Part shown: piece after piece, positions 19,895 to 36,985 of the stretch | Layout: the number at the start of each line of letters is the position of its first letter | How positions within the stretch are numbered: the stretch's first letter is position 1 | DNA from: an uncultured Gemmatimonadales bacterium | Lineage (GTDB): Bacteria; Gemmatimonadota; Gemmatimonadetes; Gemmatimonadales; GWC2-71-9 | DNA length: 64,000 nucleotides | Direction: 5' to 3' | Assembly (NCBI GenBank): GCA_963828735.1 | Contig: CAWHFW010000005.1 | Span: 64,001 to 128,000, forward strand | Notes under the pieces: model-generated | The model's database searches: none | Told to the model about the DNA's origin: nothing | What the model saw: only the letters and a program-made list of their open reading frames with translations | Position numbers and translations under genes: made by a program

Positions 19895-19941
19895 CGCTGT
19901 TCGGGAACGGCCCGAAGTCCGATCGGTGTCCGCCAGCCACC

Positions 19942-20199
19942 CTACTGCGACAGCCGCTTCGGCTCTCCGCTATTCGCGTTCGGCGCCTGCTGATTCTGCG
20001 CGTCCGGCTGGCGCGAGGCGAGATTGCGCTGCGCCTCGTCCGGCCCCATGATCGCTTCCGTGGTGTCGGTCAGGCTCCGCTTGAACTCACGAATGCCCTT
20101 GCCGATCGAGGACCCCACCTCCGGCAGCCGCTTGGCGCCGAACAGCAGGAGCACCACCACCATGATCAGCATGATTTCGGTAAAACCGAGGTTGCCCAC
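19942..20199 (-). CDS. tatA: Twin-arginine translocase TatA/TatE subunit
   Basis: LGFTEIMLIMVVVLLLFGAKRLPEVGSSIGKGIREFK. Confidence 0.95.
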   Translation of the reverse strand: MGNLGFTEIMLIMVVVLLLFGAKRLPEVGSSIGKGIREFKRSLTDTTEAIMGPDEAQRNLASRQPDAQNQQAPNANSGEPKRLSQ

Positions 20200-20208
20200 G
20201 GGGACCCC

Positions 20209-20478
20209 CTAGAAAATCGAGCGGGCGATCAGGTACGCCACCAGGACGCCGATCAGGGCCAGCAGCGAGACGTGCAGACCGATCGGGCCCAGGGTGAAGT
20301 TTATCACCAGGAGGTCGGCGGAGACAGGGCCGAAATTGGCCGTCCAGGTACTGGTGAAGAACGTACGCGCGGCGCTCTCCGGCAGCGTCTGCCGGAGAAG
20401 CGCGGTGAGTGCTCCGCCTCCGATGAACCCCGCGACGAGGATCCCGAGGTAGAACCCCGGCCGATGGGGACCGGCCAT
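20209..20478 (-). CDS. Small membrane protein, DUF4321-like
   Basis: Two hydrophobic segments flanking GPVSADLLVINFTLG. Confidence 0.7.
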   Translation of the reverse strand: MAGPHRPGFYLGILVAGFIGGGALTALLRQTLPESAARTFFTSTWTANFGPVSADLLVINFTLGPIGLHVSLLALIGVLVAYLIARSIF

Positions 20479-21467
20479 CAGCGCCTGCGATCCACGACGT
20501 AGGTGATCGCCGCCCGGAGCGCGTCGCGCGCGGGCGACGGCGGCAGCGCATCGAGCTCGCCGTCCGCCTGCTGGGCGAGCCGCAGCGCGCGCTCGCGCGC
20601 GTAGTCCAGTCCGCCCGCCTCCGCCACCGCCGCGACCACCTCGGCGATCTGCGGGTCGTCCGGCTCGGGAGTGTCCATCAGGGCATCCACCTGCGAGCGG
20701 GCCGCCGCGCCCATCCGCGGCAGCGCGGCGATGAGGGGCAGCGTGACCTTGTGCTCGCGCAGATCGGAGCCCGTCGGCTTACCGGTGACGGACGGGTCGC
20801 CGACGTAGTCGAGGAGGTCGTCCACGATCTGAAACGCCATGCCGAGCGCCTCGCCGTAGCGGCGGAGCGCGGCGCGCTCGCCGGGCGCCGCGCGCAGGGC
20901 GCCCACCTCGCATGCCCCCGACAGGAGCGACGCGGTCTTCGCCTGGATCAGGAGGTCGTACGCCTCTTCCGAGAACTGGAGCGGCTCGTGCGCCAGGAGC
21001 TGCCGCATCTCGCCCACGGTCATCTCGTTGGTCACGCGGCTCAGCACGCGGAGCGGCTCCAGGTCGTCGAGCCGCACCAGCTCGATCACGGCGCGCGAGT
21101 ACAGGTAGTCGCCCATGATGACCGACACCTGGTGGCTGAACAGCGAGTTGATGGTCGGCATGCCCCGCCGGAGCACCGAGTGGTCCACGGAGTCGTCGTG
21201 CACCAGCGTCGCCACGTGAATCAGCTCGATCACCGCGGCGAGGGTCACGGTGCGCGGGTCGCGCGACCCGGTCGCCTCGTCGGCCAGCAACAGCAGGGTC
21301 GGGCGGAACATCTTGCCCTGCATCTGGAAGAGATGCGAGTTGACCTGCGCGATCAGGCCGAAATCCGCCTCGACGATCCGGCGGACCTCGTGCGGCACGC
21401 GGTCGAGCCGGCCGCGCACCGGACTCTGCAAATCGGCGAGGGTGATCGGGACGATCTGAGAGCTCAT
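20478..21467 (-). CDS. Polyprenyl diphosphate synthase (IspB-like)
   Basis: GKMFRP; LVHDDSVD..RRG; KTASL; FQIVDDLLD; GKP.GSDLRE.K.TLP. Confidence 0.93.
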   Translation of the reverse strand: MSSQIVPITLADLQSPVRGRLDRVPHEVRRIVEADFGLIAQVNSHLFQMQGKMFRPTLLLLADEATGSRDPRTVTLAAVIELIHVATLVHDDSVDHSVLRRGMPTINSLFSHQVSVIMGDYLYSRAVIELVRLDDLEPLRVLSRVTNEMTVGEMRQLLAHEPLQFSEEAYDLLIQAKTASLLSGACEVGALRAAPGERAALRRYGEALGMAFQIVDDLLDYVGDPSVTGKPTGSDLREHKVTLPLIAALPRMGAAARSQVDALMDTPEPDDPQIAEVVAAVAEAGGLDYARERALRLAQQADGELDALPPSPARDALRAAITYVVDRRR

Positions 21468-23722
21468 TCGCGCCGCCCCGCCGTGAGTCGGTGGATGCGC
21501 TCGCTCAGGTCCATGAACTGGATGTCCACCGCCATCGCGCGCTCGTAGCTCGTGATGGCGTCAGCGCCCTTCCCCTGCGCCTCCAGCGCGCGGCCGAGCC
21601 AGTAGATCAGGCCGATCTTCGCCTCGTCGCCGCCGTCGACGCTATCGACGGCGCGCCGGAGCACCGCCTCGGACACCGCGAACTGGCCCTTCTCGAAGAA
21701 GGCCATTCCGAGCGCCTCCGACGTGCGGAGGCGGCCCTCGGGCGCCCGCAGGGCCTTCTGGAACTCCGCGATGGCCTCGTCGAGCAGCCCCATCTCCTTG
21801 AACGCCACGCCGAGGTCGTAGTGCGCCTGGTAGTCATCGGAATCGAGGTTCTGCTCGATGCCGCGCTTGAACTGCTCCAGGATCTCCTTGAACTCCCGCT
21901 GCTCGTCCTCGTCCTGCGGCTCGCGGCGCTCGATGCGCATGCGCGTGTCGCGGGGCGCGGACTCCTCGAAGATCATCGAGCCGAGGTCCACGAACGGATC
22001 GCTCCCGACGGCCGCCGGCGGCGGAGCTGGCGGCGGGGGTGTGGGAGGAGCCGGCGGGAGGGCGGGCATCGATGCGGCCGGCCGACTCGCCGGTGGCGCC
22101 GGCGTGCTCGCCGGTGCGGCCGGGGGCGCGGTCAGCGCCGTAACGGCCGCCGATGCGCGATCATTGGCGGGGTCGTGCTCCTGCACGCGGCGATACACGG
22201 CGAGGGCCTTGTCGGTCGCCCCTGCTCGGCCGAGCGCGTCGCCCAGCGAGAGGTAGGCATCCAAGAGCGGGGCCCGCTCACCGGTCCGGAAGGCCAGCTC
22301 GACCCGCTTCTGATGATGGTGGATCGCGTCCGGCTCCAGGGCGACGAGGCGGTCCCCGATCCCCGTTGCACCCTGCCAGTCCTCGGCACGCTCGTAGCCT
22401 TCGAGCGCGAGCCGCAGCTCCTCCGCGGCGCGGGGCAGCTCGCCCACGAGCAGCAGTCGGTCCGCCAGCTCGCGATGGAGATCCGGGTTGTCCGGATCGT
22501 CGACGATCCGGTCCTCGAACTCCGCGACCTCGTCCGCCGGCGCCCCCGCGTAGTCCTCCGCCCTCGGGTCCGCTTCCGCTCCCGCCTCGATCAGCGGCAG
22601 CCCCGTGGTGGCCGACGGCGATGGCTCCGCCGCCTCGTCTTCGATGAAATCGAGATCGAGGTCGTCCACGGCCGCCACCGTCTCGGTGAAGTCCACCTCG
22701 GTCGCCGCGAGGGACAGGTCGAGATCCTCAGCGGTATCGAGGAGGCCTTCGACCGGCGCCGCGTCCACCTCTTCGTCTATCGGCAGCACCGTCGACTCGA
22801 GGGGCAACCCCTCGAAGCTGAGATCGGCGGCCGGCGTCTCGAGCTCGAGTCCCGCCACCAGGCCGACGGGCTCGGTCGGCGCGTCGGCCTCGATCGTCTG
22901 TTCCAGCCCCGCGAGTGCCTCCGCCGCCGCCGGCTCCTCGACACCCGTGTAGTCCGGCTGAGTGAGCTCGAGTCCCTCTGGCGGCGGGGCGTCCACGGAC
23001 ACGGGCGGCTCCGCGGGCGCCGCCGCCGCGGGCGGCGTCGTCGGCACGTCGAGCCCGGTGTCGAGGAAGACGAGATCGCCCCGGCTCCGTGGGGTCGGCC
23101 GTGGGGGTGCAGGTGCCGCCGCATCTGCGCCCTCGCCGGCCGGCGCCACAGGATGCGCGGGGCCGCCGCCGGCGAGCTCGAGATCGCCGGCGATCTTGGC
23201 GAGCTGCTCGAGCGCCTCTTCTTCCCTCGAAGCCGCGCGCAGCAACTCGACCAGCATCATGCGGATTTCCTGGCTCCCCGAGAACTGATCCGCGAACTCC
23301 TTGACCGACTGAAACGCCTGGTCCAGCTGTCCGAGCCCGTTCATCCGTTCGAGGAATTCGATCAGGTTCCGCTTGGCCTCGATGACGACGTTCTTGCGGG
23401 CGTGGAGCTGGGCCAGCTTGAGGTAGGTCTGCGTTCGACCGGGGTTGACTCGCAGAATCTTTCCGCAGAGCGCGATCGCGTTGTTGAAGAACCCCTGATC
23501 CGCGTACAGGTCGACCGCCCGCTCATAGGAGCGCACCGCGGCCGCGGTATCGTTGATCTTGAGGTAGAGGTCGCCGACGCGATTGTAGAGCGAGAGGTCC
23601 GGGCTGGTATCGGCCCCGGATTCGATTTGCTGGATGGCTTTGAGGTAGACGTCGATCGCCTTTCGCCAGTCCTCCTTCTGCTCGAACTTCCGCGCCGAGT
23701 CTTTCAGCTTTTCCAGATTCAT
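21464..23722 (-). CDS. Multi-TPR protein with acidic low-complexity linker
   Basis: Three TPR clusters; C-terminal HYDLGVAFKEMGLLDEAIAEFQKA. Confidence 0.85.
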   Translation of the reverse strand: MNLEKLKDSARKFEQKEDWRKAIDVYLKAIQQIESGADTSPDLSLYNRVGDLYLKINDTAAAVRSYERAVDLYADQGFFNNAIALCGKILRVNPGRTQTYLKLAQLHARKNVVIEAKRNLIEFLERMNGLGQLDQAFQSVKEFADQFSGSQEIRMMLVELLRAASREEEALEQLAKIAGDLELAGGGPAHPVAPAGEGADAAAPAPPRPTPRSRGDLVFLDTGLDVPTTPPAAAAPAEPPVSVDAPPPEGLELTQPDYTGVEEPAAAEALAGLEQTIEADAPTEPVGLVAGLELETPAADLSFEGLPLESTVLPIDEEVDAAPVEGLLDTAEDLDLSLAATEVDFTETVAAVDDLDLDFIEDEAAEPSPSATTGLPLIEAGAEADPRAEDYAGAPADEVAEFEDRIVDDPDNPDLHRELADRLLLVGELPRAAEELRLALEGYERAEDWQGATGIGDRLVALEPDAIHHHQKRVELAFRTGERAPLLDAYLSLGDALGRAGATDKALAVYRRVQEHDPANDRASAAVTALTAPPAAPASTPAPPASRPAASMPALPPAPPTPPPPAPPPAAVGSDPFVDLGSMIFEESAPRDTRMRIERREPQDEDEQREFKEILEQFKRGIEQNLDSDDYQAHYDLGVAFKEMGLLDEAIAEFQKALRAPEGRLRTSEALGMAFFEKGQFAVSEAVLRRAVDSVDGGDEAKIGLIYWLGRALEAQGKGADAITSYERAMAVDIQFMDLSERIHRLTAGRRE

Positions 23723-23817
23723 GCGGCTCGGGCTGGAGAAGGGAGACCAGAGATAAGGCTAGGAGTGAGCGAAAAGTACCGGGCTGCCACCCCCCCGGCA
23801 AGCAGGTGCGCGCGGGC

Positions 23818-25347
23818 CTACGCGACCCCCGGATCGAGCTCGCCGAGGGCCACCGCGCGGGCCAGCCGCTCGAGGTCCGGAGCGGGCGGGCGGTCGGCCA
23901 CGAGGGGGGGCACCGCGGGACTGAGCCCCCGCAGACGGCGATACAGCGTCCCGACCCCGCGTCCCGGCGCGAGGGGCTTCAGGAACTCGAGGCCCTGCGC
24001 CGCGCACAAGAGCTCGGCCGCCACGACGCGCTGCGCGTTGGCCAAGATCCGCTGCGCCTTCCACGCCGACGCCATCCCCATGGGGACGAAGTCCTCCTGA
24101 TTGGCGTCCGTCGGTATGGAGCCGATGCTTGCCGGCATGGCGATGGCTCGCGACTCCGCGACCAGCGACGCCGCCGTGATCTGCACCATCATGAACCCGC
24201 TGGAGAGACCGGGGTCGTCGGTCAGAAACGCCGGCAGCCCCTGGGAGAGATCGGGGTTGACGAGGCGCTCGACTCTTCGCTCGGCGATCGCCTGCAGGGT
24301 CGTGAGCGTCATCGCCAGCACGTCCAGCGCCTGGGCCACGGGCTGACCGTGGAAGTTGCCGCCCGAGATGACGTCGCCGTTTCCGAAGACCAGCGGATTG
24401 TCGGTCGACGCATTGAGCTCGACGGCGACCGTCTCCTCCGCGAAGCGGATCGCGTCCGCCACGGCGCCAAGCACCTGCGGCGCGCACCGGAGACTGTACG
24501 CGTCCTGCACGCGAGGATCGTTCTCCCGGTGCGACTCGCGGATCTCGCTGTCGACGAGAAGCCCGCGCATCAGATCCGCGGCTTCCGCCTGGCCGCGATG
24601 CGGGCGGGCGGCGTGGATGCGCGGGTCGAGCGGGGCCGGCGTGCCGCGGAGCGCTTCGAGGCTCATCGCCGCCGCACCCACGGCGGTCCGCCAGAGCACC
24701 CGCGCGTCGTGGGCGAGCAGCGCGAGCAGCGCGGTCTGCGCCTGCGTGCCGTTGATGAACGCGAGGCCTTCCTTCGGCGCCAGGACGAATGGAGCGAGGC
24801 CGGCGGCCGCGAGGGCGTCGTGCGCCGGAGTCGTCCCCGTGCGACCCAGGACGTCGCCCTCTCCCATCAGCGCCAGGGCGATGTGGCTCAGCGGGGCCAG
24901 GTCTCCGCTCGCGCCCACGCTGCCCTGCTCCGGGACCAGCGGGACGATGCCCGCGTTGAGCAGCGCCACCACGGCGTCCACGAGCTCCGGCCGGACGCCG
25001 CTCGTGGGACGGAGGAGGACGTTGGCACGCAGCAGCATGACCGCGCGCACCACCTCCGCGCCCATCGCCGCTCCGACGCCGGCGGCGTGGCTTCGGATCA
25101 GGTTGACCTGGAGCTGGTCCAGCTTGTCCGGTGGCACCCGCACGTTGGCGAGTTTGCCGAAGCCGGTGTTGATCCCGTAGATCGTCTGCCCCGACGCGAT
25201 CGCGGCCTCCACCAGGCGTCGGCTGCCGAGCAGCGCCTGTCGCGCGCCGCCGTCCACGCCCACGCGGACCGACGGATTCCGGGCAACGCGCACGACGTCC
25301 ATGACCGTGAGCGAGCGGCCATCGAGCGTGCAGTCTGAGGCAGGCAT
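23818..25347 (-). CDS. hutH: Histidine ammonia-lyase
   Basis: YGINTGFG, SHAAG, GSVGASGDLAPL (MIO-forming ASG), QDAYSLRC and GGNFHG motifs. Confidence 0.95.
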   Translation of the reverse strand: MPASDCTLDGRSLTVMDVVRVARNPSVRVGVDGGARQALLGSRRLVEAAIASGQTIYGINTGFGKLANVRVPPDKLDQLQVNLIRSHAAGVGAAMGAEVVRAVMLLRANVLLRPTSGVRPELVDAVVALLNAGIVPLVPEQGSVGASGDLAPLSHIALALMGEGDVLGRTGTTPAHDALAAAGLAPFVLAPKEGLAFINGTQAQTALLALLAHDARVLWRTAVGAAAMSLEALRGTPAPLDPRIHAARPHRGQAEAADLMRGLLVDSEIRESHRENDPRVQDAYSLRCAPQVLGAVADAIRFAEETVAVELNASTDNPLVFGNGDVISGGNFHGQPVAQALDVLAMTLTTLQAIAERRVERLVNPDLSQGLPAFLTDDPGLSSGFMMVQITAASLVAESRAIAMPASIGSIPTDANQEDFVPMGMASAWKAQRILANAQRVVAAELLCAAQGLEFLKPLAPGRGVGTLYRRLRGLSPAVPPLVADRPPAPDLERLARAVALGELDPGVA

Positions 25348-25523
25348 GGCCCGAAGTAACCCGGGGCGGCGCACGGATTCAACCCCCGCACGTTCCCGGA
25401 TTGCCCGTGACACGCGAAGGGGCGAGGCGGCCCGTCACGACCCTCCGCCGTGGCGCACCGCCCCGCCCCTTCGCGCGTCGGCCGTGGCTCGTGGTGGCCG
25501 CGGGGACGCTGGGAGCTGATCAG

Positions 25524-26372
25524 CTATTTCGAGGCGTGCCGCACCAGGAGCTCGGGGTTGCCCGGGTCGGTCTGATAGGCCCAGTCGAGGATCAGGAAGT
25601 CGTGCCCGACGTGGCTGACGCGGACGGCGCCGTAGCGCTTGAACCCGTCACCGCCGTTCATCTCGAACACGTACCCATATCCCGGAATCGCGAGGATCCC
25701 CGACGTCCGGTACGCGCGGTCGGCCGCGAAGTCGATCGAGGTCAAGTCCTCCACGGGATTGTTCTCGTCGTAGTACTCGACGCCGGTGCCGGCGCGAACC
25801 GGCGTGAGATAGAGATCGCCGATGCCGTCGCGGTCCACGAAGAAGTCGATACTGGCGGCCGAGCCCGCGCGGATCAGGCCCAACTCCGCATCCTGGACGC
25901 CGCCGTCACCGTTGAGGTCGTCCCAGAAGCGGAAGCCGCTGCCCGCATCCTGGAACTCGAACGCGTAGAGGATCGTGTTCCGGGAGTCGGGGCGCGGCGT
26001 GTCGGACCGAACCGGCGATTGACCGCTCTCGGACCCGTCGATGCTCACCGCGGTGACCGCGTAGCAGTGGGGCACGCCGTTGGCAAGCGCGCCGACGATG
26101 AACTCCGGCGCCACGGTGGTTCCCTCGAGCTGCCAGGTCGAGCCGCACTGATTCTGATCGAGATCGTAGGAGGTGCTGTAGACCCGGTAGTTCTGGAAGT
26201 TGCCTGGAGCCGAGACGTACGAGTTGTCGGTCCAGGTGAGGGCGATGGCGCCGTCTAGCGAGGTGCTGGACAGGCTCGCGGGCACATCGGGAGGTGCGCC
26301 GGGCCCGGTCTGGTTGTCCGACGAGCATGCGGCCACCGCGGCGAGGGCGCCGAGCATCCACCAACCACGCAT
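25524..26372 (-). CDS. Lipoprotein with fibronectin type III-like domain
   Basis: Lipobox VAAC; ALTW..YRVY..YAVTAVS FN3 pattern; DLNGDG Ca-binding-like loop; GGAGA SD. Confidence 0.75.
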   Translation of the reverse strand: MRGWWMLGALAAVAACSSDNQTGPGAPPDVPASLSSTSLDGAIALTWTDNSYVSAPGNFQNYRVYSTSYDLDQNQCGSTWQLEGTTVAPEFIVGALANGVPHCYAVTAVSIDGSESGQSPVRSDTPRPDSRNTILYAFEFQDAGSGFRFWDDLNGDGGVQDAELGLIRAGSAASIDFFVDRDGIGDLYLTPVRAGTGVEYYDENNPVEDLTSIDFAADRAYRTSGILAIPGYGYVFEMNGGDGFKRYGAVRVSHVGHDFLILDWAYQTDPGNPELLVRHASK

Positions 26373-26404
26373 AGGTGTCTCCGAAGGGGTTTCGCCTGCG
26401 GATG

Positions 26405-26420
26405 AGCGAAACGCGTGCCA
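26405..26420 (-). promoter_or_regulatory. Putative sigma54 promoter TGGCACG-CGTT-TCGCT
   Basis: GG-N10-GC with the TGGCACG consensus, about 30 bp upstream of the lipoprotein start. Confidence 0.55.
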
Positions 26421-26501
26421 CCGTACCGATGCCATAAACCGTTACTGTACAGCTACTTATCGCGACAAACCGGCAGCCAGCCGTCCCGATCCGGGGACAG
26501 G

Positions 26502-29500
26502 TCAACGCTCGATGGTCGTCTGATCGTAGTCGAACTTGAGCTCCGGCAGGTCGGTCAGATAGATCGTGAAGTAGAAAGAGAAGTTGCCGTTCGGATTCTT
26601 CACGAAGTTGAAAGCCGCCCGCCACTCATGCAGCTCGCGCTCGAGCCGCACTACCTGCGACTCGAACTGCCCGTCGGTGATGTTGTACTGCGACGACCAC
26701 GAGAGGGACCAGAATGGCGTCGGCGAGAAGTTGGTGCTGAAGCCGAGGCTCTGCCGGTCGGGCGTGTCCAGCGGGTTGGGAACGCCGAACGGAGGTCGAG
26801 TCCGCGTGAGCTGATAGTTGAAATTCGAGGTGAATGCGTGGCCCGGCCGCCGAATTGGCACCTGGGTGGTCGAGAAGAATGATCCCGGACGAGTATGCCG
26901 CCCCGATTCCGCCACGTACGATGTCGGCACCTCCTCGGGCCTGCCGCCCTTCGACTTGCCGCCAAGCCCGAAGATGGAGCCGATGGCGCGGAAGGTGTTG
27001 GCCGAGATCGCGAAGCTCGCGCTCACATTCTGGAGGAAGGGCTCGAACTTCGACGTGTCGCTTCCGACGGCGCCCCGCCACAGATCGTGTGTCAGGCTGA
27101 GATTGAATCCCGGCAGCAGGTCGCTCAGGATCGAATTGGTGAGGGACTGCGTGGCCCACCCGGTGAAGCCAGGCTTCTTCGCCTGCTCGAAGTCGTAGCT
27201 GACGCCGCTGGTGCTGATGCTGAGCAATCGAATCTTCCGGCTGTTCTCCGCCGAGGTCGTGTCGCCGCTCTTGGGCAGGAACTTTCCTTCGAACGCCTGG
27301 GAGAGCGAGACGGTCAGGCGCTGCTCGGCGTCGCTCCGGAGCTCAACCGGCTGGCCTGGGAGGGCGATCGCCCGCGCGAATTCCTCGGACACGTCGGCGG
27401 CCGGCTGGTAGCTCCAGGTGACGACCGGCGAAAAGCTGTGGCGGATCCGTGCCAAAGGACCGATGCCTGGATAGAACCCGAACAGCGTCGGCGAGCCCGT
27501 CGCCCCGAACCGGAATCGCTTGCCCTGCTGCACCCAGGTGCCGTTCGTGTTGCGGTTCCGGATCGCGAATGTGCCGGTCGTAGCGTTCCCCACCCCGACC
27601 ACAGGCTGAATCTTCCAGCTGCCCCGGAAGAGAACGGGCAGATTGATGCCCGTGTCCCAGTCGAGCGAGCTCTGGAAGTCGCTCAAGAAGGTCCGCTGGA
27701 CGGTGATGCTGTCCGTGGGATCGGGAGTGGCAGGGTTGTCGGTGCGGAACGTCACTACCTCCTGGCCCTCGGACGACTGGTCGGTCACCTGGAGCGAGTT
27801 CGACCAGTTGAACCCGCCGAGTCGGATCGGCGTGTCGAAGCTCAGCGCCGTGATGCGAGAGCTCGCGTCCGTCGCGACCGTGTCGAAGAGCCCGCCCGGG
27901 AGCGCCAGCAGCACCGTGTCCCTGCCCGGGTTGCTGGTCGTGTTGTTCGTGAAGCTCAGCCCCGGCGACCACGAGATGTTCGAGCCCAGCGCGATCGGCA
28001 CGGGCGAGAGAGTCACGGCAGGCAGCAGCTGCTGGACGCTGCCGTCGGTGAGACTCTGGCGCCGGTTGCCGCCCAGCGTCAGGGTGCCCCATGGCAGCCG
28101 CTTCGAATAGTTGAGCGAGCTCGTGATCTGCTGCGTGTTCTGCAGGGGGTCGATCGCGTTCCCCTGGATGACGGTGGTGTTGCTCGCGTAGTTGATGTTG
28201 AAGTTGAGCGACGTGGTCAGATTGAACTGCTGGCTGTGATCCCACCGGAAGCTCAGCCCGGATCCACCTTCGGTCTGCCGCTGCTCGTTGATGCCGATCG
28301 ATCCGCTCATGAACCGGTTCAGCCATCGATATTGGCCGCTCACGCCGTACTGGACGTACCGGTTGGCGAACCAGTCGAGCCGCCCCGTCAGATCCAGATA
28401 GTCGCTTGGCGCCCAGTAGTAGCCGAGGTTGGTGATCTGACGGTTGTAGTTGTCCGTGGGCCGGATCAGGTCGTTGATGCCGAACTGCGGCACCAGGATG
28501 CCCGAGTGCCGCCCCGGCCGCACGTCCTGGAAGATGAACGGCAGCCAGAGGATCGGCACGTCGCGCACGTAGAGAACCACGGGTCGCGCGACCAGGACGT
28601 TTTTCGAGATCCACTTCATCTCGCGCGCGCTGAAGTGGTAGTGCGGCGTGGGCAGATCGCAGCTCGTGATCTGGCTCGAGCCCGCGTAGATGCGGCTCGA
28701 GCTCGAATCCTGGGCGACGTTCCCGCGGAGGAACCAGACGGTCGAGCCTTCGGTGAAGTTGGTCAGCGCCTCGTCCACGATGCCGCGGCGCTTGCAGGTG
28801 TCGTAGCGAATTCCCTCACCGACGAGCACCTGACCGCGGTCGAACAGATGGGGGTTCCCGTCGGCGTCGAGCAGGCAGCTGTCGCGTTGATACCGGATCG
28901 TGTCTGCCTCGAGCAGCGCTCCCTGCCGTTCGGTCAGCGCCTCGCCTTGCAGCAGCACGCGCTCGTCCTTGATGAAGACGGTCGCGGAATCGGCGCGATA
29001 TCGTGTCGACTGATAGCCGTGGCGCGCCTTGAGGTCCGTGAGGACGGAATCATCCGGCGCGAAGCTCCGGCTCGGTCCCGTGGGGATGCCGAGCCGCCCC
29101 GCGGTCGCGCTGTCCAGCGACTGACCCGGCTTTTTCCGGCGGAGGGAGTCCTGAAGCGAATCCGGCACGGCCTGCCGCACCTGCCCCGGCCTCGGCTTTG
29201 CCGGCACTTGGGCCTCGGCGCGCGGGACGCCGAAGCCGAGCCCCAGCAGCACCAGTGCCGCCGTGACGGCCGCCTTTCGGCGGCGGCGATGGATGATGAC
29301 CGCACCCGCGTATCCCACCTCGTAGAGGAGGAGCAGCGGAATGGTCATCATGATCATGCTGACGAGATCGGTCCCAGGCGACAGAATGGCCCCGGCGATG
29401 AACGCGGCGACGACCGCGAAGCGCCGGAACCGCGCCAGGTCGGCCGGGCTGATCACCTCGAGCCAGGCCAGGATCACGATGACGAGCGGCAGCTCGAAGG

Positions 29501-30014
29501 AGAGCCCGAGGGCCAGCACCACCTGAAGGACGAAGTCGAAGTATGCGTCGTAGGTGATGAATGGCTGGATCGCTTCGGTCTGGAAGCTGAACAGCACGCG
29601 AAGCGCCTGCGGCACGACGAAGACGTAGGCGGCGCCCGCCCCGATGAGAAACAGCACCAGGCCCACGAACAGCGCCGGCACCAGCGCGCGCTTCTCGCGG
29701 GAGTAGAGCGCAGGCGCGAGGAATGCCCACAGCTGCCACAGGATCACCGGCGACGCGAGCACGAGGCCGACGATAAAGCCGAGCTTGAAGACGATCATCA
29801 CCGGCTCGGTGGGGCTCGTGACGATGAGCTTTCCACCTGCGCCGGTGAGATACGGGGCGATCGGCTGCTTGAGGAGATTGACGAGCTGGAACCGCTGGAC
29901 CAGCCACAGGCCGAGCCCGAAGCCGACCACGATGGCGGCGAGCGAGCGGAGAATGCGCCAACGAAGCTCCTCGAGATGATCGAGGAAGGGCATCTCCCCG
30001 GGGGAGCCGGTCAT
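26502..30014 (-). CDS. tatC: TatC-LptD fusion protein (TatC aa 1-~242, internal signal peptide, LptD-like OstA domain plus beta-barrel from aa ~269)
   Basis: MPFLDHLEELRWR, FLAPALY..EKR, FELP and LSPGTD (TatC); TSCDLPTPHYHF, ARPVVLYV.DVPILWLPF, RHSGIL.P and RELHEW (LptD); one uninterrupted frame. Confidence 0.9.
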   Translation of the reverse strand: MTGSPGEMPFLDHLEELRWRILRSLAAIVVGFGLGLWLVQRFQLVNLLKQPIAPYLTGAGGKLIVTSPTEPVMIVFKLGFIVGLVLASPVILWQLWAFLAPALYSREKRALVPALFVGLVLFLIGAGAAYVFVVPQALRVLFSFQTEAIQPFITYDAYFDFVLQVVLALGLSFELPLVIVILAWLEVISPADLARFRRFAVVAAFIAGAILSPGTDLVSMIMMTIPLLLLYEVGYAGAVIIHRRRRKAAVTAALVLLGLGFGVPRAEAQVPAKPRPGQVRQAVPDSLQDSLRRKKPGQSLDSATAGRLGIPTGPSRSFAPDDSVLTDLKARHGYQSTRYRADSATVFIKDERVLLQGEALTERQGALLEADTIRYQRDSCLLDADGNPHLFDRGQVLVGEGIRYDTCKRRGIVDEALTNFTEGSTVWFLRGNVAQDSSSSRIYAGSSQITSCDLPTPHYHFSAREMKWISKNVLVARPVVLYVRDVPILWLPFIFQDVRPGRHSGILVPQFGINDLIRPTDNYNRQITNLGYYWAPSDYLDLTGRLDWFANRYVQYGVSGQYRWLNRFMSGSIGINEQRQTEGGSGLSFRWDHSQQFNLTTSLNFNINYASNTTVIQGNAIDPLQNTQQITSSLNYSKRLPWGTLTLGGNRRQSLTDGSVQQLLPAVTLSPVPIALGSNISWSPGLSFTNNTTSNPGRDTVLLALPGGLFDTVATDASSRITALSFDTPIRLGGFNWSNSLQVTDQSSEGQEVVTFRTDNPATPDPTDSITVQRTFLSDFQSSLDWDTGINLPVLFRGSWKIQPVVGVGNATTGTFAIRNRNTNGTWVQQGKRFRFGATGSPTLFGFYPGIGPLARIRHSFSPVVTWSYQPAADVSEEFARAIALPGQPVELRSDAEQRLTVSLSQAFEGKFLPKSGDTTSAENSRKIRLLSISTSGVSYDFEQAKKPGFTGWATQSLTNSILSDLLPGFNLSLTHDLWRGAVGSDTSKFEPFLQNVSASFAISANTFRAIGSIFGLGGKSKGGRPEEVPTSYVAESGRHTRPGSFFSTTQVPIRRPGHAFTSNFNYQLTRTRPPFGVPNPLDTPDRQSLGFSTNFSPTPFWSLSWSSQYNITDGQFESQVVRLERELHEWRAAFNFVKNPNGNFSFYFTIYLTDLPELKFDYDQTTIER

Positions 30015-30033
30015 GCGCAGGCCGCGCCCGGGC

Positions 30034-30852
30034 TTAGCGCCCGAGCGCCTTCAGGCGATCACGTGCCAGGGCGGCCTCGTCCGACTGCGGGTACTTCTGC
30101 ACCACGCGCTGGTAGGCATCCTTGGCCTTGGCGTTGTCCTTCCGCCGCTCGGCGAGAAGGCCCAGGTTGTACAGCGCCGACGGGGCACGGGCCGAGGTGG
30201 GATACTTGTCCACCACCTGCGAGTAGTATTCCGCGGCCGAGTCCGGGTTCTCGGCCGAAAAGCTCTGGCCGATGAAGTAGAGCGCGTCCGGCGCGCGCGA
30301 GCTCGTGGGGTAGGTCCGGAGCAGCTCGCGGAGGCCCAGCCGTGCGGTGCCGGTGCTGCCCCGCCGGAGCTGTGCCAACGAGGCCTCGTACATCGCGTCG
30401 GCGGAGGCGGACGACTGGGCGGCGGGCTGCGCGGTATCTCCGGGCGCGGTCGGCCCCGGTGCCCCGGTCGGACCGCCATCGTTGTTCTGCGCGGCCCGGG
30501 CCTCCAGCTGCGTCCTGAGCTCGCTCAAGCGCTGCTGGCTCTGCCCGGTGAGCTCCTGCAGCTGCACCAGCTGCTGCTGGATGTTGTAGAGGTCCTGGGA
30601 TACGTCGCCCTTGACCTGCGCCACCGTATGGCGGGTCACGGTCAGCGAGTCCATGATCTGGCGCTGCATCTGAATCACCTCACCGAGCTGCGCGGCCCGT
30701 GTGGAGTCGCGACGCAGCGTCTCGGCCCGGAGCAGCGCCACCTCGCCCTGCACCATCTGGATGTCGCCCTTGGAGACGCAGCCCGACAGCCCTCCCGCGG
30801 CCGAGGCGGCCGCGAGCAGGGTGGCGGTCAGGCGTCGAGACATGGAGCTCAC
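30034..30852 (-). CDS. cpoB: Tol-Pal system protein YbgF/CpoB
   Basis: Lipobox LSGC; coiled coil; TPRs with YP.S..APDALY; follows pal. Confidence 0.88.
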   Translation of the reverse strand: MSSMSRRLTATLLAAASAAGGLSGCVSKGDIQMVQGEVALLRAETLRRDSTRAAQLGEVIQMQRQIMDSLTVTRHTVAQVKGDVSQDLYNIQQQLVQLQELTGQSQQRLSELRTQLEARAAQNNDGGPTGAPGPTAPGDTAQPAAQSSASADAMYEASLAQLRRGSTGTARLGLRELLRTYPTSSRAPDALYFIGQSFSAENPDSAAEYYSQVVDKYPTSARAPSALYNLGLLAERRKDNAKAKDAYQRVVQKYPQSDEAALARDRLKALGR

Positions 30853-31424
30853 TGCGGGGCGACGAGGTGGTCCCCGCCGGCCGTGACCTGGAACTCGTCG
30901 CGGCGATTCTGCGCGTAGGACGTTTCGTCGTGACCCGGGTTGAGGGGACGCTCCTCACCGAAGGAGACGACGTCCATCCGGCTGGCGTCGATGCCCTTGT
31001 TCTCGAGGTAACGCTTGGCCGCCGCGGCGCGACGGTTGCCGAGGGCAAGGTTGTACTCGTCCGAGCCGCGTTCGTCCGCGTGGCCGCTGATCTGGATCTT
31101 CACGCTCGGGTTGGCGCCGAGGATGGACGCCTTCCGATCGAGCGTGGCCTGATCGGTTGACCGGATGACCGACTGGTCGTACTCGAAGTTGATCATAGCC
31201 GCCAGATCCGCCGCGACCGCCTTCGCGCGCTCGGCCGCCGCGTTGGCCGCCGCGATCGAATCCGCGCGCCGCTGCTCGGCGCTGTTATCGACCGGCGCCG
31301 GCTCGGGCGCGGGCGGGGCCTGGGTCGTAGTGTCGGGGGCAGGCTGTTCGGGCGCGGGCTTCCCACCGCAAGCGGTAGCGAGCCCGGCGGTGGCCAGGAC
31401 CAACAACAGGGTAGTGGCGCGCAT
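30849..31424 (-). CDS. pal: Peptidoglycan-associated lipoprotein
   Basis: Lipobox; GHADERGSDEYNLALGNRRA; SFGEERP; NRR. Confidence 0.95.
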   Translation of the reverse strand: MRATTLLLVLATAGLATACGGKPAPEQPAPDTTTQAPPAPEPAPVDNSAEQRRADSIAAANAAAERAKAVAADLAAMINFEYDQSVIRSTDQATLDRKASILGANPSVKIQISGHADERGSDEYNLALGNRRAAAAKRYLENKGIDASRMDVVSFGEERPLNPGHDETSYAQNRRDEFQVTAGGDHLVAPQ

Positions 31425-31443
31425 CAGGACTCCACGTTCGAGG

Positions 31444-32772
31444 TTAGGGGGTGACCGCGGTCCGACTCAGGCGGCGGGACCACGCAGGGAGCCGCGCCGC
31501 GCCAGGTGATCTCAGCTGGCGAACGCGGCCCGTCTCGACGTCAATGACCCAGAGCTGTCGGGCGCCGCTCCGGTCAGAGACGAAGGTGATATGACGGCCG
31601 TCGGGCGCCCAGGTGGGGTCCTCGTTGCGGCCGGACGACGTGAGCTGCCGGACCCGTCGCCCCGCCACGTCGACGAGGAACAGCTGGGGGCTGCCGGTGA
31701 CCTCACGATGGAACACGACGTTGGCCCCGTCGGGCGACCACTCCGGGGCGTTGGAGCTGCCCGTCGCGCCGAAATCGAACGGCGCGAGCAGTTCCTGATC
31801 GGTCCCGTCGGCGGCCATGACGTAGACTTGGGGCGGTCCCGCCCGCGTGGATACGAACGCGATGCGGCGGCCATCTGGAGAAAACGTTGGAGATAAGTTG
31901 TCCGCGTAGCGTCCCACGGTCAAGCGTTGCGCGCAGCAGCGATCGGCGATGTTCGCGAGGAAAATATCCGTCCCGGTCTCGTCCGAGTGCGCGTACGCGA
32001 GGAGCCGCCCGTCCGGCGAGAACGCGGGCGTGATGTTGAGCCCCGTATTCGTCCCCGGGACCTGCAGCGCCGCCCCGCTCGCGAGCGTCTGCACCATCAC
32101 GCCACCCCGGCCGCCGGCCAGTACCGTGTACGCGAACCGCTGGCCGTCAGGCGACCACACCGGCGAGAGCGAGGTCTGACCCGCCGGGGTGAGCGGCGTG
32201 ATCACCTCGCCGTCGCTGTCTATCCGATAGACCCGCCCACCCGAGACGAACAGCAGCCGGGTCGTCGCGACGCCTTCGGTGCCGGTGGCCCAGCGCGCGA
32301 CCTGGTCTGCGATGTTGTGCACCTGGTAGCGGAAGGTCGGGTCGGTCATTGCCGGGAGCTGGAAGGTCTCCTGGACCCGGACCTTTCCCGCGGACAGGTC
32401 GTGGAGCCGGACGGCCACGCCGCCGGTCACCTCGGACATCTCGACCCCGAATTCCGCCCCGAGCGCCTTGTAGATCCCGTAGCTCGTCCCACCGGCCTCG
32501 GCCCCGCCGCGGCTCGCCGGCGAGGTATCGAGGGGGACCATCTCGAACCGGTCACTGTAGTCCAGATCGCGGTGAACGATCGCCCGAGCGGAGTCGAGTC
32601 CGGCCCCGGGCAGGACGACGAGCCCGGGACGCACGCCGGGCTGGTACTCCACGCCGACGCGAACTTTATCGATGGCCTGCGTCGTGTCCTGGGCCGCGGC
32701 GCGGGTGGCGCCGAGTCCCACGAGGATCGCCGGCAGAACGAGTGCACGGAAGCGGGAAAGCGGTCGGGTCAT
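31444..32772 (-). CDS. tolB: TolB beta-propeller protein
   Basis: Repeated PD40 motifs (P.WSPDG); position between tolA and pal. Confidence 0.9.
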   Translation of the reverse strand: MTRPLSRFRALVLPAILVGLGATRAAAQDTTQAIDKVRVGVEYQPGVRPGLVVLPGAGLDSARAIVHRDLDYSDRFEMVPLDTSPASRGGAEAGGTSYGIYKALGAEFGVEMSEVTGGVAVRLHDLSAGKVRVQETFQLPAMTDPTFRYQVHNIADQVARWATGTEGVATTRLLFVSGGRVYRIDSDGEVITPLTPAGQTSLSPVWSPDGQRFAYTVLAGGRGGVMVQTLASGAALQVPGTNTGLNITPAFSPDGRLLAYAHSDETGTDIFLANIADRCCAQRLTVGRYADNLSPTFSPDGRRIAFVSTRAGPPQVYVMAADGTDQELLAPFDFGATGSSNAPEWSPDGANVVFHREVTGSPQLFLVDVAGRRVRQLTSSGRNEDPTWAPDGRHITFVSDRSGARQLWVIDVETGRVRQLRSPGAARLPAWSRRLSRTAVTP

Positions 32773-33464
32773 CTCGAAGTGGGCTTGAAGTAGAAGCTCA
32801 CGGGCAGGACGTCGGCGTCCCAACCGTCGGGGAGCGGACCAAAGCTCCGGGCGTTGCCAGCCGCTTCGACCGCGCCCTGAGCGCCCAGATCGAAGGCGAA
32901 GCTGCCCGAGCGGGTCACGAAACGGATGTCGCGCACCGACCCGTCGCGCAGGATCAGGAAGCTGATCTCGGCGAAGTTGTTCTGCCGGGCCGACTCGCGA
33001 TCCCAGTTGCGATAGACCTGCGTGACGATGTTCCTCAGGTACTCGGGAAACGGAAACTGGAGTCCCGGCGTCTTGATCGTCGCGACATCCGTCCCGGTGC
33101 TCGGCGTCTCGCCTTCGGCCGGTGTGACCGGTGCGCTGGTCTTGGGCGGAGGCTCGCGCTTGGTCTCGGTCGGCGGCGGCTTGGGCGTCGGCACCGCGGG
33201 AGCCTTGGTCGGCTTCGGCTTGGGCGCGGGCTTGACCGGCGCCGGCTTCTCCACCGGTGGCGTGGGAACAGCCTCGGTGGCGCGGCGCTTGTTCGGGGCG
33301 GGCGCGGGAGCGGCGACCAAGTTGACCTGGTAGGTCGGCGGCCCAGCCTTCGCCGGCTGCACCTGGGTAAAGGCCAGCGCCGCCACGCTTCCATGGACCA
33401 GCACGGTCCCGATCAGGCCCGCCGTGGTACCCGGCGTGCGCCCGCGATCGGCCCGCACGTTCAC
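32769..33464 (-). CDS. TolA/TonB family energy transducer
   Basis: TM helix with His; Pro/Lys-rich linker; TonB_2 C-terminal domain (ILRDGSV...SG..FD). Confidence 0.85.
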   Translation of the reverse strand: MNVRADRGRTPGTTAGLIGTVLVHGSVAALAFTQVQPAKAGPPTYQVNLVAAPAPAPNKRRATEAVPTPPVEKPAPVKPAPKPKPTKAPAVPTPKPPPTETKREPPPKTSAPVTPAEGETPSTGTDVATIKTPGLQFPFPEYLRNIVTQVYRNWDRESARQNNFAEISFLILRDGSVRDIRFVTRSGSFAFDLGAQGAVEAAGNARSFGPLPDGWDADVLPVSFYFKPTSR

Positions 33465-33892
33465 GGCGCGCCTTCCTCCGCGGCCACGAGGCCCACGTTC
33501 TGGATGCCCGATCCCCGGATCACGGCCAACACGCGAACGACCTCGCCGTAGGGCACTCGCCTGTCCGCCTGGAGGTACACGCCCTCCGGCTTTCTGGTGG
33601 CCACGAGTGAGCGGAAGGTCACCCGAAAATCGTTGTAGGAGACCGACGTCTGATCCACGGAGATGCGCCCGTCGCGGTCCACCGTCACCACCATGCCCTG
33701 CTTGGGATCGAGCGGCTTGGCCTCGGCCCGCGGGAGCTCGACGTCCACGCCGCCTTGCATCAATGGTGCCGTGATCATGAAGACGATCAGGAGCACCAGC
33801 ATCACGTCCACCAGTGACGTCACATTGACGTCCGCCATGAGCGGCAGGTCGCCACGCTGGCTCCCGAGACCGCCTCCGAGCCCGGCCGACAT
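33461..33892 (-). CDS. tolR: TolR/ExbD
   Basis: DVNVTSLVDVMLVLLIVFMITAP; AD..VPYG.V. Confidence 0.92.
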   Translation of the reverse strand: MSAGLGGGLGSQRGDLPLMADVNVTSLVDVMLVLLIVFMITAPLMQGGVDVELPRAEAKPLDPKQGMVVTVDRDGRISVDQTSVSYNDFRVTFRSLVATRKPEGVYLQADRRVPYGEVVRVLAVIRGSGIQNVGLVAAEEGAP

Positions 33893-34606
33893 CTAGAGCA
33901 GGCCCTCTCGGGCCATCGTGCCGATGAGCTCGTTGGCGAATCCTTCGAGCTCGCCCGCGAAGAGCCGCACGCGGTTGACGTAGAGGTTGTACGCGATGAC
34001 CGCGGGAATGGCCGCCGCGAGGCCCGCGAACGTGGCCACCAGCGCTTCGGCCACACCCGGAGCCACTGCCGCCAGATTCCCGGAGCCCTTGGTGGCGATG
34101 CCGGTGAAGGCGCTGATGATGCCGAGCGTCGTCCCGAGGAGGCCCAGCAGTGGACTCACCGAGCCGATGGTGGCGAGCCAGGGGATGTAGTGCCCCAGCA
34201 AGTCGCGTTCGGCCGCCACTTCCTTGCCCAACACCATCTTAAGTGCCTCGAGCTGGGTCGGCGTGAGCGTGCTACGGTCCGCGCCGCGCTCCTCGCGGAG
34301 CGCTCCGGGGCGAAGCTCGGAGTAGAACGTGATCGCCTCACGGAACAGGCGGTTGTAGGGCGAAGGCGGCTGCTTCATGACCGCGTGATACGCTTCCTGC
34401 AGCCGGGTGGTGCGCTCCATCTCGGCGAAGAAGCGGTCCGCCTGCTTGTTGAGCCGGCGGAACTGCCACCACTTGAGGATGATGATGAACCAGGAGACGA
34501 GCGAAAAGACGGCGGTGATGATCAACACGACCTTCGTCTCGGTGCTCGAGGTCAGGACCAGCTCGACCGCCGAGCGCGGCACGGCGCCACCCGTCTGCAG
34601 GATCAT
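33893..34606 (-). CDS. tolQ: TolQ/ExbB proton channel
   Basis: LATIGSVSPLLGLLGT; VAPGVAEALVAT..GL.AAIPAVIAYN. Confidence 0.93.
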   Translation of the reverse strand: MILQTGGAVPRSAVELVLTSSTETKVVLIITAVFSLVSWFIIILKWWQFRRLNKQADRFFAEMERTTRLQEAYHAVMKQPPSPYNRLFREAITFYSELRPGALREERGADRSTLTPTQLEALKMVLGKEVAAERDLLGHYIPWLATIGSVSPLLGLLGTTLGIISAFTGIATKGSGNLAAVAPGVAEALVATFAGLAAAIPAVIAYNLYVNRVRLFAGELEGFANELIGTMAREGLL

Positions 34607-35553
34607 CGCGCCTCCGTCCGGAACCAGTCCACGAGCAGGGGCAGACCGTCATCAAAGGTCCACTTGGGCGCCCATCCCAGCACCTTCTTCGCCTTGCCGA
34701 TGTCGAGGGCGCTCCGGAAGAGCTCGCCGGCGCGCGGCGGCGCGAACTCGAGCTCGGGCCTCTGCTTCATCACCCTTCCGACGGCGTCGGCCAGCTCGAG
34801 CACGCTGGTCTGACGCGACGTGGCGATGTTGAACGCCGGCCCGTCGAGCTCGCCGTTGACCGACAGCTTGACGGTGGAGGCGAGCACGTTGGCGCGCGCG
34901 ACGTCCTTCACGAACACGTAGTCCCGGGTCTGCTTGCCGTCACCGAACACGGTGAGCCTTTGCTTGTCGAGCAGGCGGGACACGAAGATCGAGACGACGC
35001 CGGCCTCGGACTTCGGATCCTGCCGAGGGCCGAACACGTTCGCGTACCGCATCGCCACGCCCTCGAATCCGCGGAGGGCGCCGAGCGCCCGGAGGTAGTA
35101 CTCGCCCGAGAGCTTGCTCACACCATAGGGGCTCACCGGGAGCTTCGGAGCGGTCTCGGGCGTGGGGATTACGTCCGGATCGCCGTAGACGACTCCGCCG
35201 CTGCTGGCGAAGATGACGCGCTTGACGCCCCCCTCGCCCGCGCCCTCGAGCAGGTTCACCAGCCCGACGACGTTGATGCCCGCGTCGAAGGCGGGCTGGT
35301 CGACCGAGACCCGGACGTCGATCTGGGCGGCGTGATGGTTGATGGTGTCGAACCCGCCCGTCGCCGCCAGCTTCCTCGCCTCGGGCGAGCGGATGTCGGC
35401 CCGGACGAACCGCGCGCCGGCCGGCACGTTGCGCTCGTGGCCGCGAGACAGGTCGTCAACGATGACGACCTCCCACCCCTCCTGGAGATAGGCCTCCGCG
35501 ATGTGGGACCCGATGAATCCTGCCCCACCGGTGACCAGTACCCGCCCGCTCAT
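34603..35553 (-). CDS. NAD-dependent epimerase (UDP-glucose 4-epimerase-like)
   Basis: VTGGAGFIGSH; YGVSK (YxxxK); RYANVFGPRQ; GDGKQTRDYV. Confidence 0.92.
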   Translation of the reverse strand: MSGRVLVTGGAGFIGSHIAEAYLQEGWEVVIVDDLSRGHERNVPAGARFVRADIRSPEARKLAATGGFDTINHHAAQIDVRVSVDQPAFDAGINVVGLVNLLEGAGEGGVKRVIFASSGGVVYGDPDVIPTPETAPKLPVSPYGVSKLSGEYYLRALGALRGFEGVAMRYANVFGPRQDPKSEAGVVSIFVSRLLDKQRLTVFGDGKQTRDYVFVKDVARANVLASTVKLSVNGELDGPAFNIATSRQTSVLELADAVGRVMKQRPELEFAPPRAGELFRSALDIGKAKKVLGWAPKWTFDDGLPLLVDWFRTEAR

Positions 35554-35668
35554 GCGCCGTGCCTCGCCATGATCGCTCCAATAGGGGATTGCTGAAGGAG
35601 TGGAACCGTCGCCCCGCAATATAGATACGCGAAGCACAGAAGGAACCGGGACACGCGGACGTGAAAGC

Positions 35669-35703
35669 GACGCGGCGCCGAGGAGCCCCCTCGGCGCCGC
35701 GTC
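35669..35703 (-). terminator. Hairpin terminator after the LysM gene
   Basis: 15-bp perfect stem (GACGCGGCGCCGAGG / CCTCGGCGCCGCGTC) with a 5-nt loop. Confidence 0.7.
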
Positions 35704-35722
35704 ATCACCTCACTCCCGGAGG

Positions 35723-36985
35723 TCAGGACGGGAGCTTGGCGACCTGGGTTGCATCCGCGCCCGGCGGAATGTCGGGCGACAGGATGTTCAGCAGGCGAGC
35801 CGTGGCGCTGTGCTCCCGCACGTGCACCACTTGGAGGGTGGCCATCACGTCATTGATGAGCTGGCGGCCGTCCGGCAGGCGCTGAGCACGCCGGCGGATC
35901 TCGAACAGGTCACCCGCCGCGACGCCATCCTGGCGTCCCTTGTCGAGGAACACGACCATCTGCGGTGCCTTGAGGTCCTGCCGGCCGGGGCCGCCCAGGA
36001 ACGTGGCGTGAACGCCCTCGGTGACCGGCACCGCGTGAGCTTCGCCCGACGGCGTGAACTTCTCCGCCGGCAGCACGTGCTGCCCCAGCCGGATCGGCCC
36101 GTAGGTGGCGACCACGATGGCCACGTAGCGGCCCTGGACCGTATCGGTCACCTGGGCAAGGCCAGTGGGGATGATCACGTCGCCGTGGGAGGGAATCTCG
36201 CGACCGATCTGGACCACGAGCAGCGTATCGCCGATCTGGTACGTGGCGCCGCGCGGCGCCTGGATGGCGATGATCGAGTAGGGCAGCGCGCTCGCGTTGA
36301 TGCTGCTCGCGCGGATCTGCTGCGGAGTCACCGGTCCGAGCACCGCGCCGTACGGCAGCCGCTGGTTCTCGGTCAGAAAGCCGGAGGAGTAGAACTCGCT
36401 CCGCCGAAGCGCGCGATAGGGCTGATGCTTGTAGTTCCGCAGGCTCTCCTCGATCATTGCCGTCCGCGGGGGACCGAACAGCCCCTGCTCCTCGCCGCGC
36501 TCGTTGGCCGAGACGGCCGTGAGCTGCGCGAGCGTCTTCTGCGACGGGTCCGACGGCATGTCCTGCTGCGCGTCGGCGACGGGCGCATCAGCGACCCCGG
36601 TGCCGGCAGGCGCAGTATCGGATACCGTTGCGGGGACCTGGGCCATGGCAGGCATGGCGACCGCGCTGTCCGCCGGAGCCGCGGCAACCGGCGCCGCGGC
36701 CTCGGGCGTATCGGTGGCGGGAACGGCCTTCACGCTGTCGCCGCCGGCGAGGCTGAGCACCTCACCCGGATAGATCCAGTGCGGATCCTCGACGACGCTC
36801 GTATTCAGACGGTAGATGTCCGGCCAGAGGAACGGATCGCCGCGATACTGCTTGGCGAGGTCCCACAGCGTATCGCCCTGGCGGACCGTATGGGTCTCGG
36901 GCGCGGCAGCCTGTGCGAGCGCGAGACCCGGGGTCAGGGTCAGGGCAAGCAGGCCCACCCACTTCCAGTGGAACGTGCGCGGCAT
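35723..36985 (-). CDS. Secreted LysM peptidoglycan-binding protein (TsaP-like architecture)
   Basis: Signal peptide ALA-Q; HTVRQGDTLWDLA..Y.GDPFLWPDIY..N...DPHWIYPG; C-terminal LDKG..DGV..GD. Confidence 0.88.
   Translation of the reverse strand: MPRTFHWKWVGLLALTLTPGLALAQAAAPETHTVRQGDTLWDLAKQYRGDPFLWPDIYRLNTSVVEDPHWIYPGEVLSLAGGDSVKAVPATDTPEAAAPVAAAPADSAVAMPAMAQVPATVSDTAPAGTGVADAPVADAQQDMPSDPSQKTLAQLTAVSANERGEEQGLFGPPRTAMIEESLRNYKHQPYRALRRSEFYSSGFLTENQRLPYGAVLGPVTPQQIRASSINASALPYSIIAIQAPRGATYQIGDTLLVVQIGREIPSHGDVIIPTGLAQVTDTVQGRYVAIVVATYGPIRLGQHVLPAEKFTPSGEAHAVPVTEGVHATFLGGPGRQDLKAPQMVVFLDKGRQDGVAAGDLFEIRRRAQRLPDGRQLINDVMATLQVVHVREHSATARLLNILSPDIPPGADATQVAKLPS

Follow-up and report, generated by a model that had tools for sequence, protein, structure and literature searches.

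A bacterial gene whose single product is divided into two membrane proteins has a precedent in FbcH of Bradyrhizobium japonicum, the cytochrome b-c1 precursor, which reportedly has a polytopic protein in front of an internal spacer that resembles a signal and undergoes cleavage. Here, we describe a gene of comparable design that joins TatC, from the system for twin-arginine translocation (Tat), to LptD of lipopolysaccharide (LPS) transport. It lies in a stretch of 64,000 nucleotides from an uncultured Gemmatimonadales soil bacterium (contig CAWHFW010000005.1, positions 64,001 to 128,000), hereafter called the window. FbcH is the closest precedent, both being one gene for two membrane proteins, and the fusion has the FbcH-type layout of one open reading frame (ORF), two complete proteins and an internal signal-like spacer. 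However, the products of FbcH are subunits of one inner-membrane complex, whereas those of the fusion belong to unrelated machines in different membranes, and their cleavage is predicted. Other Gemmatimonadota have split tatC-lptD pairs (e.g., L058-L070, L162-L171) with the same genes in the same place after cpoB and the same hydrophobic core and site; in these, the tatC stop overlaps lptD's own start and two chains are made from the outset, whereas the fusion makes one. A description of a TatC-LptD fusion was not found among the listings from a search of the open-licence literature of PubMed Central and bioRxiv. We consider it likely, with a probability of roughly 0.78, that LptD is released by signal peptidase I after Sec has inserted the chain, which would make the gene a two-product bacterial polyprotein. 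The fusion is real, conserved and repeatedly evolved, a putative variant of the cleaved bacterial polyprotein that is unusual in its two destination membranes and is probably assembled from ordinary parts. The parts of the gene are as follows:

26502..30014, minus strand: tatC-lptD fusion ORF, 1170 aa (ORF call, Pfam, contig comparison)
29289..30014, minus strand: TatC, aa 1-242; six hydrophobic helices, with H13, E16, F98, Y104 and E107 kept (Pfam, TIGR00945)
29274..29288, minus strand: basic cluster R243-K247, the positive-inside C-terminal tail of TatC, doubling as the putative n-region of the internal signal
29211..29273, minus strand: hydrophobic core and c-region, aa 248-268, homologous in build to the signal at the N-terminus of unfused LptD; signal peptidase I site predicted at A268/Q269 (29211/29210)
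29088..29210, minus strand: Pro/Arg-rich N-terminal segment of mature LptD, aa 269-309 (model residues 1-41, predicted local distance difference test (pLDDT) below 50); its length varies among relatives
28524..29048, minus strand: LptA-like beta-jellyroll of LptD, about aa 323-497 (profile and fold; limits approximate)
26502..28439, minus strand: LptD beta-barrel, about aa 526-1170 (Pfam and fold; limits approximate)

A preliminary description of this DNA had read 26502-30014 as one uninterrupted TatC-LptD frame, and this proved correct, as did its placing of R243-K247 at 29288-29274 and of Q269 at 29210. The frame, of 1170 codons, contains no internal stop; it runs from a complete TatC through a linker resembling a signal peptide to an LptD of 902 residues. 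Pfam matches exceed the cut-off for TatC, at aa 12-226 with E 4.7e-62, and for LptD_2, at aa 475-943 with E 5.9e-35, and a check of domain architecture found both domains in all 120 homologues listed by a search that admitted proteins of 643-2048 aa only. In profile searches of the genome, which is 97.5% complete, the fusion gene was the sole tatC and the sole LptD_2 gene. The joint was compared in 4 of 24 listed sequencing runs. A 1450-nt contig of run X1 (study P1) crosses it from 28500 to 29805 with 1 differing letter and 0 gaps, and a contig of run X6 (study P3) crosses it from 29159 to 29470 with 0 differing letters; no indels or joints are listed in either, although the X1 or X6 sample could itself be the source of the assembly. 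The region 29200-29320, for which read support had been sought, is therefore spanned without an indel by contigs of two studies. Run X2 has a hole of 11 bases (29291-29301) between two contigs near the joint, and RNA run X15, which comes from a relative, covers parts of both domains and leaves the joint uncovered, so that it is uninformative on a single transcript. An assembly error was ruled out by the gap-free contigs from two studies together with the fused relatives.

By profile, helices, fold and binding residues, the N-terminal half is a full-domain TatC, which may act in Tat transport with TatA, one tatA-family gene being present. The TIGR00945 score is 206.7 bits against a cut-off of 132.7, there are six hydrophobicity peaks with a weaker seventh at aa 248, and a model of aa 1-281 matches solved TatC (Foldseek E 1.6e-11, template modelling (TM) score by target 0.80 to 9E01). 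Tat signals are bound in Escherichia coli by TatC residues H12, E15, F94, Y100 and E103 (PMC13323110). The corresponding residues, read off motifs, are H13, E16, F98 and E107, invariant in 80 aligned rows, and Y104, kept in at least 90% of them. The domain, six helices, signal-binding residues and fold are those of TatC at large (PF00902, TIGR00945; PDB 4B4A, 9E01), but unlike these proteins the fusion runs on into a signal-like segment and a 902-residue passenger.

The linker that follows has the build of a Sec/signal peptidase I signal, with a basic n-region, a short hydrophobic core and small residues at -3 and -1, and cleavage is predicted from this build. Using a rule that called for a 10-residue hydrophobic core and then, within 8-25 residues, small -3/-1 residues and Gln at +1, we found such a segment in 88 of the 89 fused loci that could be anchored automatically, that of this genome among them, with the site 14-21 residues past the start of the core. 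One further fused locus was unanchorable; by eye, both problem loci show the site. At -1, these 88 linkers have A, G or S in 77, 9 and 2 cases, respectively, and 15 different residues occur at -2. Q269 was invariant in all 80 aligned rows, which had been chosen for having the site. Shuffled linkers satisfied the rule in a mean of 23.4 and a maximum of 34 of 88, and the stretches after TatC's own six helices in 0, 6, 0, 1, 0 and 1 of 88. The rule and its controls thus support the earlier proposal that the linker resembles a cleavable Sec signal. Unfused LptD of the same class satisfied the rule in 52 of 62 cases and that of other classes in 3 of 11 (G188, with two tatC copies, was left out); core hydrophobicity was similar in the unfused/fused comparison (2.68 vs 2.88), as was the spacing. 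The distance from the TM6 (sixth transmembrane helix) motif to the site ranges from 35 to 74 residues among fused linkers, and TatC's tail is kept whole in some fusions and shortened in most.

Several points weigh against this interpretation of the linker. The rule was self-made, set after the linkers had been viewed, and demands Q at +1; the kin genomes to which it was applied are non-independent. At -3, Leu, which is less typical than Ala, is present in 39 of 88 fused linkers. A basic residue occurs in the c-region of 30 of 88 fused linkers vs 9 of 52 unfused signals, and the mature start carries a net positive charge over its first 20 residues (+1.6 vs +1.2); such charges in the c-region and mature start can hinder Sec export and favour Sec release in dual Sec/Tat proteins (PMC5449189). 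In an AlphaFold2 model of aa 1-281, a single unbroken helix (217-261) takes in both TM6 and the linker, with no hairpin and no docking. The method models no membrane and we take its hairpin and docking outcome as uninformative, yet it lends no support to a seventh inserted segment. The Leu at -3, the basic c-regions and the lack of a hairpin would also suit a separation carried out mainly by another protease, whether rhomboid, RseP-like or periplasmic. We regard this as distinctly improbable, as the residues at -3 and -1 follow the same pattern in unfused LptD signals, which signal peptidase I would be expected to cut in the ordinary way (-3, A 28 and L 12; -1, A 46; n = 52).

The Arg run at the start of the linker suggests a different route, in which the Arg-led linker, once released by Sec, would bind the twin-arginine site of TatC in the same or a neighbouring protomer, and Tat would export LptD or the remnant would regulate the Tat core. 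Docking of this kind had been raised in the preliminary description. Tat signals that lie inside a chain, behind helices inserted by Sec, are known and depend on low hydrophobicity and C-terminal positive charges; the dual Sec/Tat actinobacterial Rieske protein resembles the fusion in its even number of Sec-inserted helices, Arg-led hydrophobic segment and large exported part (PMC5449189). Among 88 fused linkers, 79 carry RR; the mature start is net basic, the TatC binding residues are intact, and only one TatA/B-family gene was found. What TatC recognises, however, is RRxF, through E15, F94, Y100 and E103 and a Phe pocket at the cytoplasmic ends of helices 1-3 (PMC13323110), whereas none of 89 fused linkers contains RRxF, 12 of 89 contain RRx[FL], and RR is wanting altogether in 9 of 88. 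Nor are the arginines peculiar to the fusion: in the same 11-residue window, R+K is 4.47 in unfused TatC tails (n = 85) vs 4.57 in fused ones, and RR is present in 67 of 85 unfused tails. Judged on these sequences, the Arg run is no Tat motif; the basic n-region described earlier belongs to the cytoplasmic C-terminal tail of TatC itself. Further, the fused core is at least as hydrophobic as unfused signals, and the first Arg lies 1-2 residues past TM6, which would leave no slack for docking in cis. It is also textbook knowledge that Tat carries folded proteins while barrels travel unfolded. Compared with the Rieske protein, the fusion has no conserved twin-arginine consensus of the form S/T-R-R-x-F-L-K, an ordinary core, and a barrel in place of a cofactor-loaded folded passenger. 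Overall, we consider export or regulation by Tat docking distinctly unlikely.

Translation of LptD could also begin internally, close to the linker, with the long TatC-led product being minor, degraded or trimmed. In-frame ATG, GTG or TTG codons between TM6 and the core are present in 36 of 89 fused loci, and the EV codons of TM6 give GAGG. In this gene, however, there is no such codon between mid-TM6 and the hydrophobic core; 53 of the 89 loci have none, and a Shine-Dalgarno-like word accompanies the codon in just 5 of 89. The earlier observation that no Shine-Dalgarno sequence and start codon precede the n-region is therefore correct for this gene, and the 89 loci show no conserved internal start. 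As TatC has no stop, its chain would need processing in any case, and we view an internal start as extremely unlikely.

The assignment of the C-terminal part to LptD, also made in the preliminary description, is borne out by profile and fold. PF19838 (LptD_2) scores 121 bits against a cut-off of 22.5, and a profile search with the mature part gave LptD at E 3.1e-13 and LptA at E 3.3e-4. Modelled from a 109-row alignment, the mature part had a pLDDT of 84.5, and its fold matches, of which 30 are listed down to rank 37, were LptD entries throughout (best E 1.4e-24, TM score ~0.5, 9-12% identity); the barrel call rests on this fold match. An LptA-like jellyroll and a large barrel are common to the fusion and known LptD (PF19838; PDB 8H1S, 7OMM, 4Q35), and its top hits by sequence as well as by fold are LptD, while its internal signal and low identity, the lack of a C-terminal Cys and the lack of an LptE found by Pfam set it apart from the solved proteins.

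Full LptD membership and LptD function have evidence against them. The NCBIfam LptD models score 23.1 against a cut-off of 944 and 21.9 against 683, PF04453 gives no match, Cys is found only at 380, 407 and 452 with none at the barrel end, and no PF04390 (LptE) match was found in the 97.5% complete genome. In E. coli LptD, disulfides link the N-terminal domain with the barrel end; this pattern is absent here and may not define the LptD_2 group. With LptE not found by PF04390 and no C-terminal Cys, LptD function rests on fold and context, the genome also encoding lpxC, lptF/G, Omp85 proteins and one signal peptidase I. Omp85-family matches in the whole genome number 11, nine of them above the cut-off and two in frames of >1070 aa. 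Directly 3' of lptD, here and in many fused or unfused relatives, is a gene (25524-26435, minus strand) whose 303-aa product begins with a lipobox-like sequence and matches nothing in Pfam; its neighbours in the atlas are Gemmatimonadota clusters without names and WOR-3 proteins that bear fn3. Because no LptE was found by Pfam, this lipoprotein-like protein is a candidate LptD partner.

The distribution of the fusion was followed in 300 other genomes drawn from the phylum Gemmatimonadota. In the window's family (f1, Gemmatimonadales), 112 of 125 genomes are fused, 10 are not fused and 3 could not be resolved; this count includes the unpublished G057 and G182, and without both it is 110 of 123. 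Only four fused genomes, from two families, lie outside f1: 3 of 68 searched in f2 (tatC whole in 67, and 1 unpublished genome omitted) and 1 of 79 (G180) in f4-f12, where 79 of the 103 genomes were searched after 23 members of over-sampled genera and 1 unpublished genome had been set aside. Family f3 has 0 of 3 (2 with tatC). Two sets of apparent split loci were rejected: the single TAG in five genus g15 genomes is merely the terminal stop, all five being fused, and G007 and G298, split by frame length, are fused and truncated at contig ends. Outside the phylum, no fusion was found among 47 long TatC proteins, all 19 TatC+LptD_2 cases resembling Gemmatimonadota LptDs at 57-100%, or among 80 named loci, all 19 fused ones being Gemmatimonadota metagenome-assembled genomes; 0 of 132 plasmid records covered 80% of it. 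These searches were limited in reach and are weak evidence for absence. Databases name the homologues only 'TatC', so that a lineage common in soil can be scored as lacking lptD. Other arrangements of tatC were seen: P0145 (766 aa; 7 member sequences) has the opposite order, an apolipoprotein N-acyltransferase (PF20154, PF00795) followed by a C-terminal TatC; G047 (L180) has a second, unfused tatC adjoining a tatA; and G188 (L041) has two tandem tatC genes upstream of lptD.

The split relatives indicate how the fusion arose. In 54 of 74 adjacent split loci, the TGA of tatC and an NTG codon of lptD's frame overlap (GTGA 38, CTGA 6, ATGA 5, TTGA 5; 48 with GTG, ATG or TTG), and LptD there has its own N-terminal signal-like segment, mostly ending (A/L)xA↓Q. 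Given this stop-start overlap, the split genes are probably already translationally coupled, so that no functional link between TatC and LptD is needed to account for the fusion. In a tree of LptD (FastTree, 119 rows, 80 fused), at least 10 changes of the fused/split label are required, each of them imposed by starred branches; the rows had been picked to include non-fused cases and the count is a minimum for this sample. With the root on G049, we read these as about four gains (f1, genus g47, G091, G180) and six losses within f1; the direction depends on the root, as counts alone give none. A single origin with transfer to other families was rejected, as grouping f1 with the four outside fusions gave an approximately unbiased (AU) test p of 1.5e-57, and so was a single group of the three f2 fusions (p-AU 3.0e-53), both on a 32-row LptD subset. 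The groups for the AU tests were named after a first tree had been inspected, and this history rests on the LptD tree.

In three of the losses (G148; G112; G001/G048), the stop-start overlap has been restored and the same core and site now serve as an N-terminal signal. The other three (G025; G033/G236; G066/G172/G227) have no tatC between cpoB and lptD and carry a tatC on another contig. Reversions seen in a single genome could be assembly errors; paired ones are less likely to be. The reverted LptD signals L050 and L051 (G001, G048) end LRC↓Q and LQS↓Q, respectively; the Cys at -1 of L050 is unusual for signal peptidase I and marks a possible lipoprotein-like site. Six f1 genomes lack tatC in the tol-pal/lptD cluster and have a tatC elsewhere (L043-L046, L053, L054, L142, L160, L174-L177).

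For the insertion route, the cleavage and the fate of the remnant, we infer the following course. Neighbouring tatC and lptD genes with overlapping stop and start codons would have been merged by a frameshift or small deletion that kept the core and cleavage site of LptD's Sec signal, TatC's basic tail becoming the n-region of the merged signal. The signal recognition particle (SRP) and SecYEG would insert TatC's six helices co-translationally, and the linker would act as a seventh, N-in/C-out segment that initiates export of unfolded LptD. Signal peptidase I would cleave after A268, and mature LptD from Q269 would pass via periplasmic chaperones and the beta-barrel assembly machinery (BAM) to the outer membrane. 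TatC would remain in the inner membrane, with its 26-residue remnant kept or trimmed.

A fusion left uncut would instead tether LptD to TatC via the linker and the flexible N-terminal segment, spanning both membranes. The jellyroll faces the periplasm, the first ~40 mature residues are predicted to be flexible, and the gene sits after the trans-envelope tol-pal cluster. A beta-barrel such as LptD must, however, get to the outer membrane, and a seven-helix inner-membrane anchor would obstruct this. Moreover, the (-3,-1)↓Q site persists in all the fused linkers examined even as the positions around it vary, close relatives alternate repeatedly between the fused and the split state, and a tether is unnecessary in the 6 genomes with a tatC elsewhere. 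We consider an uncut tether very unlikely.

The joining itself may have been selected, either because the TatC remnant provides a built-in seventh helix of the Tat core, in a TatB-like or signal-like position of a lineage that has just one TatA/B-family gene, or because TatC hands LptD over during export. Retention in 112 of 125 f1 genomes and repeated independent origin fit this idea, and if true it would tie Tat assembly directly to outer-membrane biogenesis, but the reversions and the drifting linker sequence disfavour it and we think it distinctly unlikely. The suggestion of the preliminary description that the fusion serves 1:1 synthesis of the Tat core and the LPS translocon likewise found no support, as the split relatives overlap stop and start and ~6 reversions occurred within f1. 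A new link between Tat and LPS transport is probably not revealed here. If the predicted cleavage is true, the gene would encode a natural bacterial polyprotein whose products come to rest in separate membranes, TatC as a polytopic protein of the inner and LptD as a barrel of the outer one. LptD is essential in model Gram-negative bacteria; here it would follow six membrane helices in co-translational export and nevertheless arrive at BAM, and signal peptidase I would handle a signal ~250 residues into a chain. The ~4 independent fusions and ~6 reversions show a route from overlapping stop-start gene pairs to polyproteins and back.

Two neighbouring features on the same strand give the setting of the gene:

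30034..34606, minus strand: tolQ-tolR-tolA-like-tolB-pal-cpoB, upstream; the cpoB stop is 19 nt before the fusion ATG
19942..20199, minus strand: tatA-family gene, the genome's only PF02416 match, six genes downstream

The fusion had been placed at the end of the tol-pal operon, an ending that is not established: a scan found no minus-strand terminator in 19500-36000, the promoter/terminator scan showing no excess over shuffles, and same-strand genes continue 3' of the fusion, from the 303-aa lipoprotein-like protein through hutH, a tetratricopeptide repeat (TPR) protein, a polyprenyl synthase and DUF4321 to tatA. The tol-pal genes, tatC-lptD, hutH and tatA may thus form one long transcription unit. 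Within 19942-20478 (minus strand), the gene for the DUF4321 membrane protein stands directly before tatA and overlaps the stop of the polyprenyl synthase gene.

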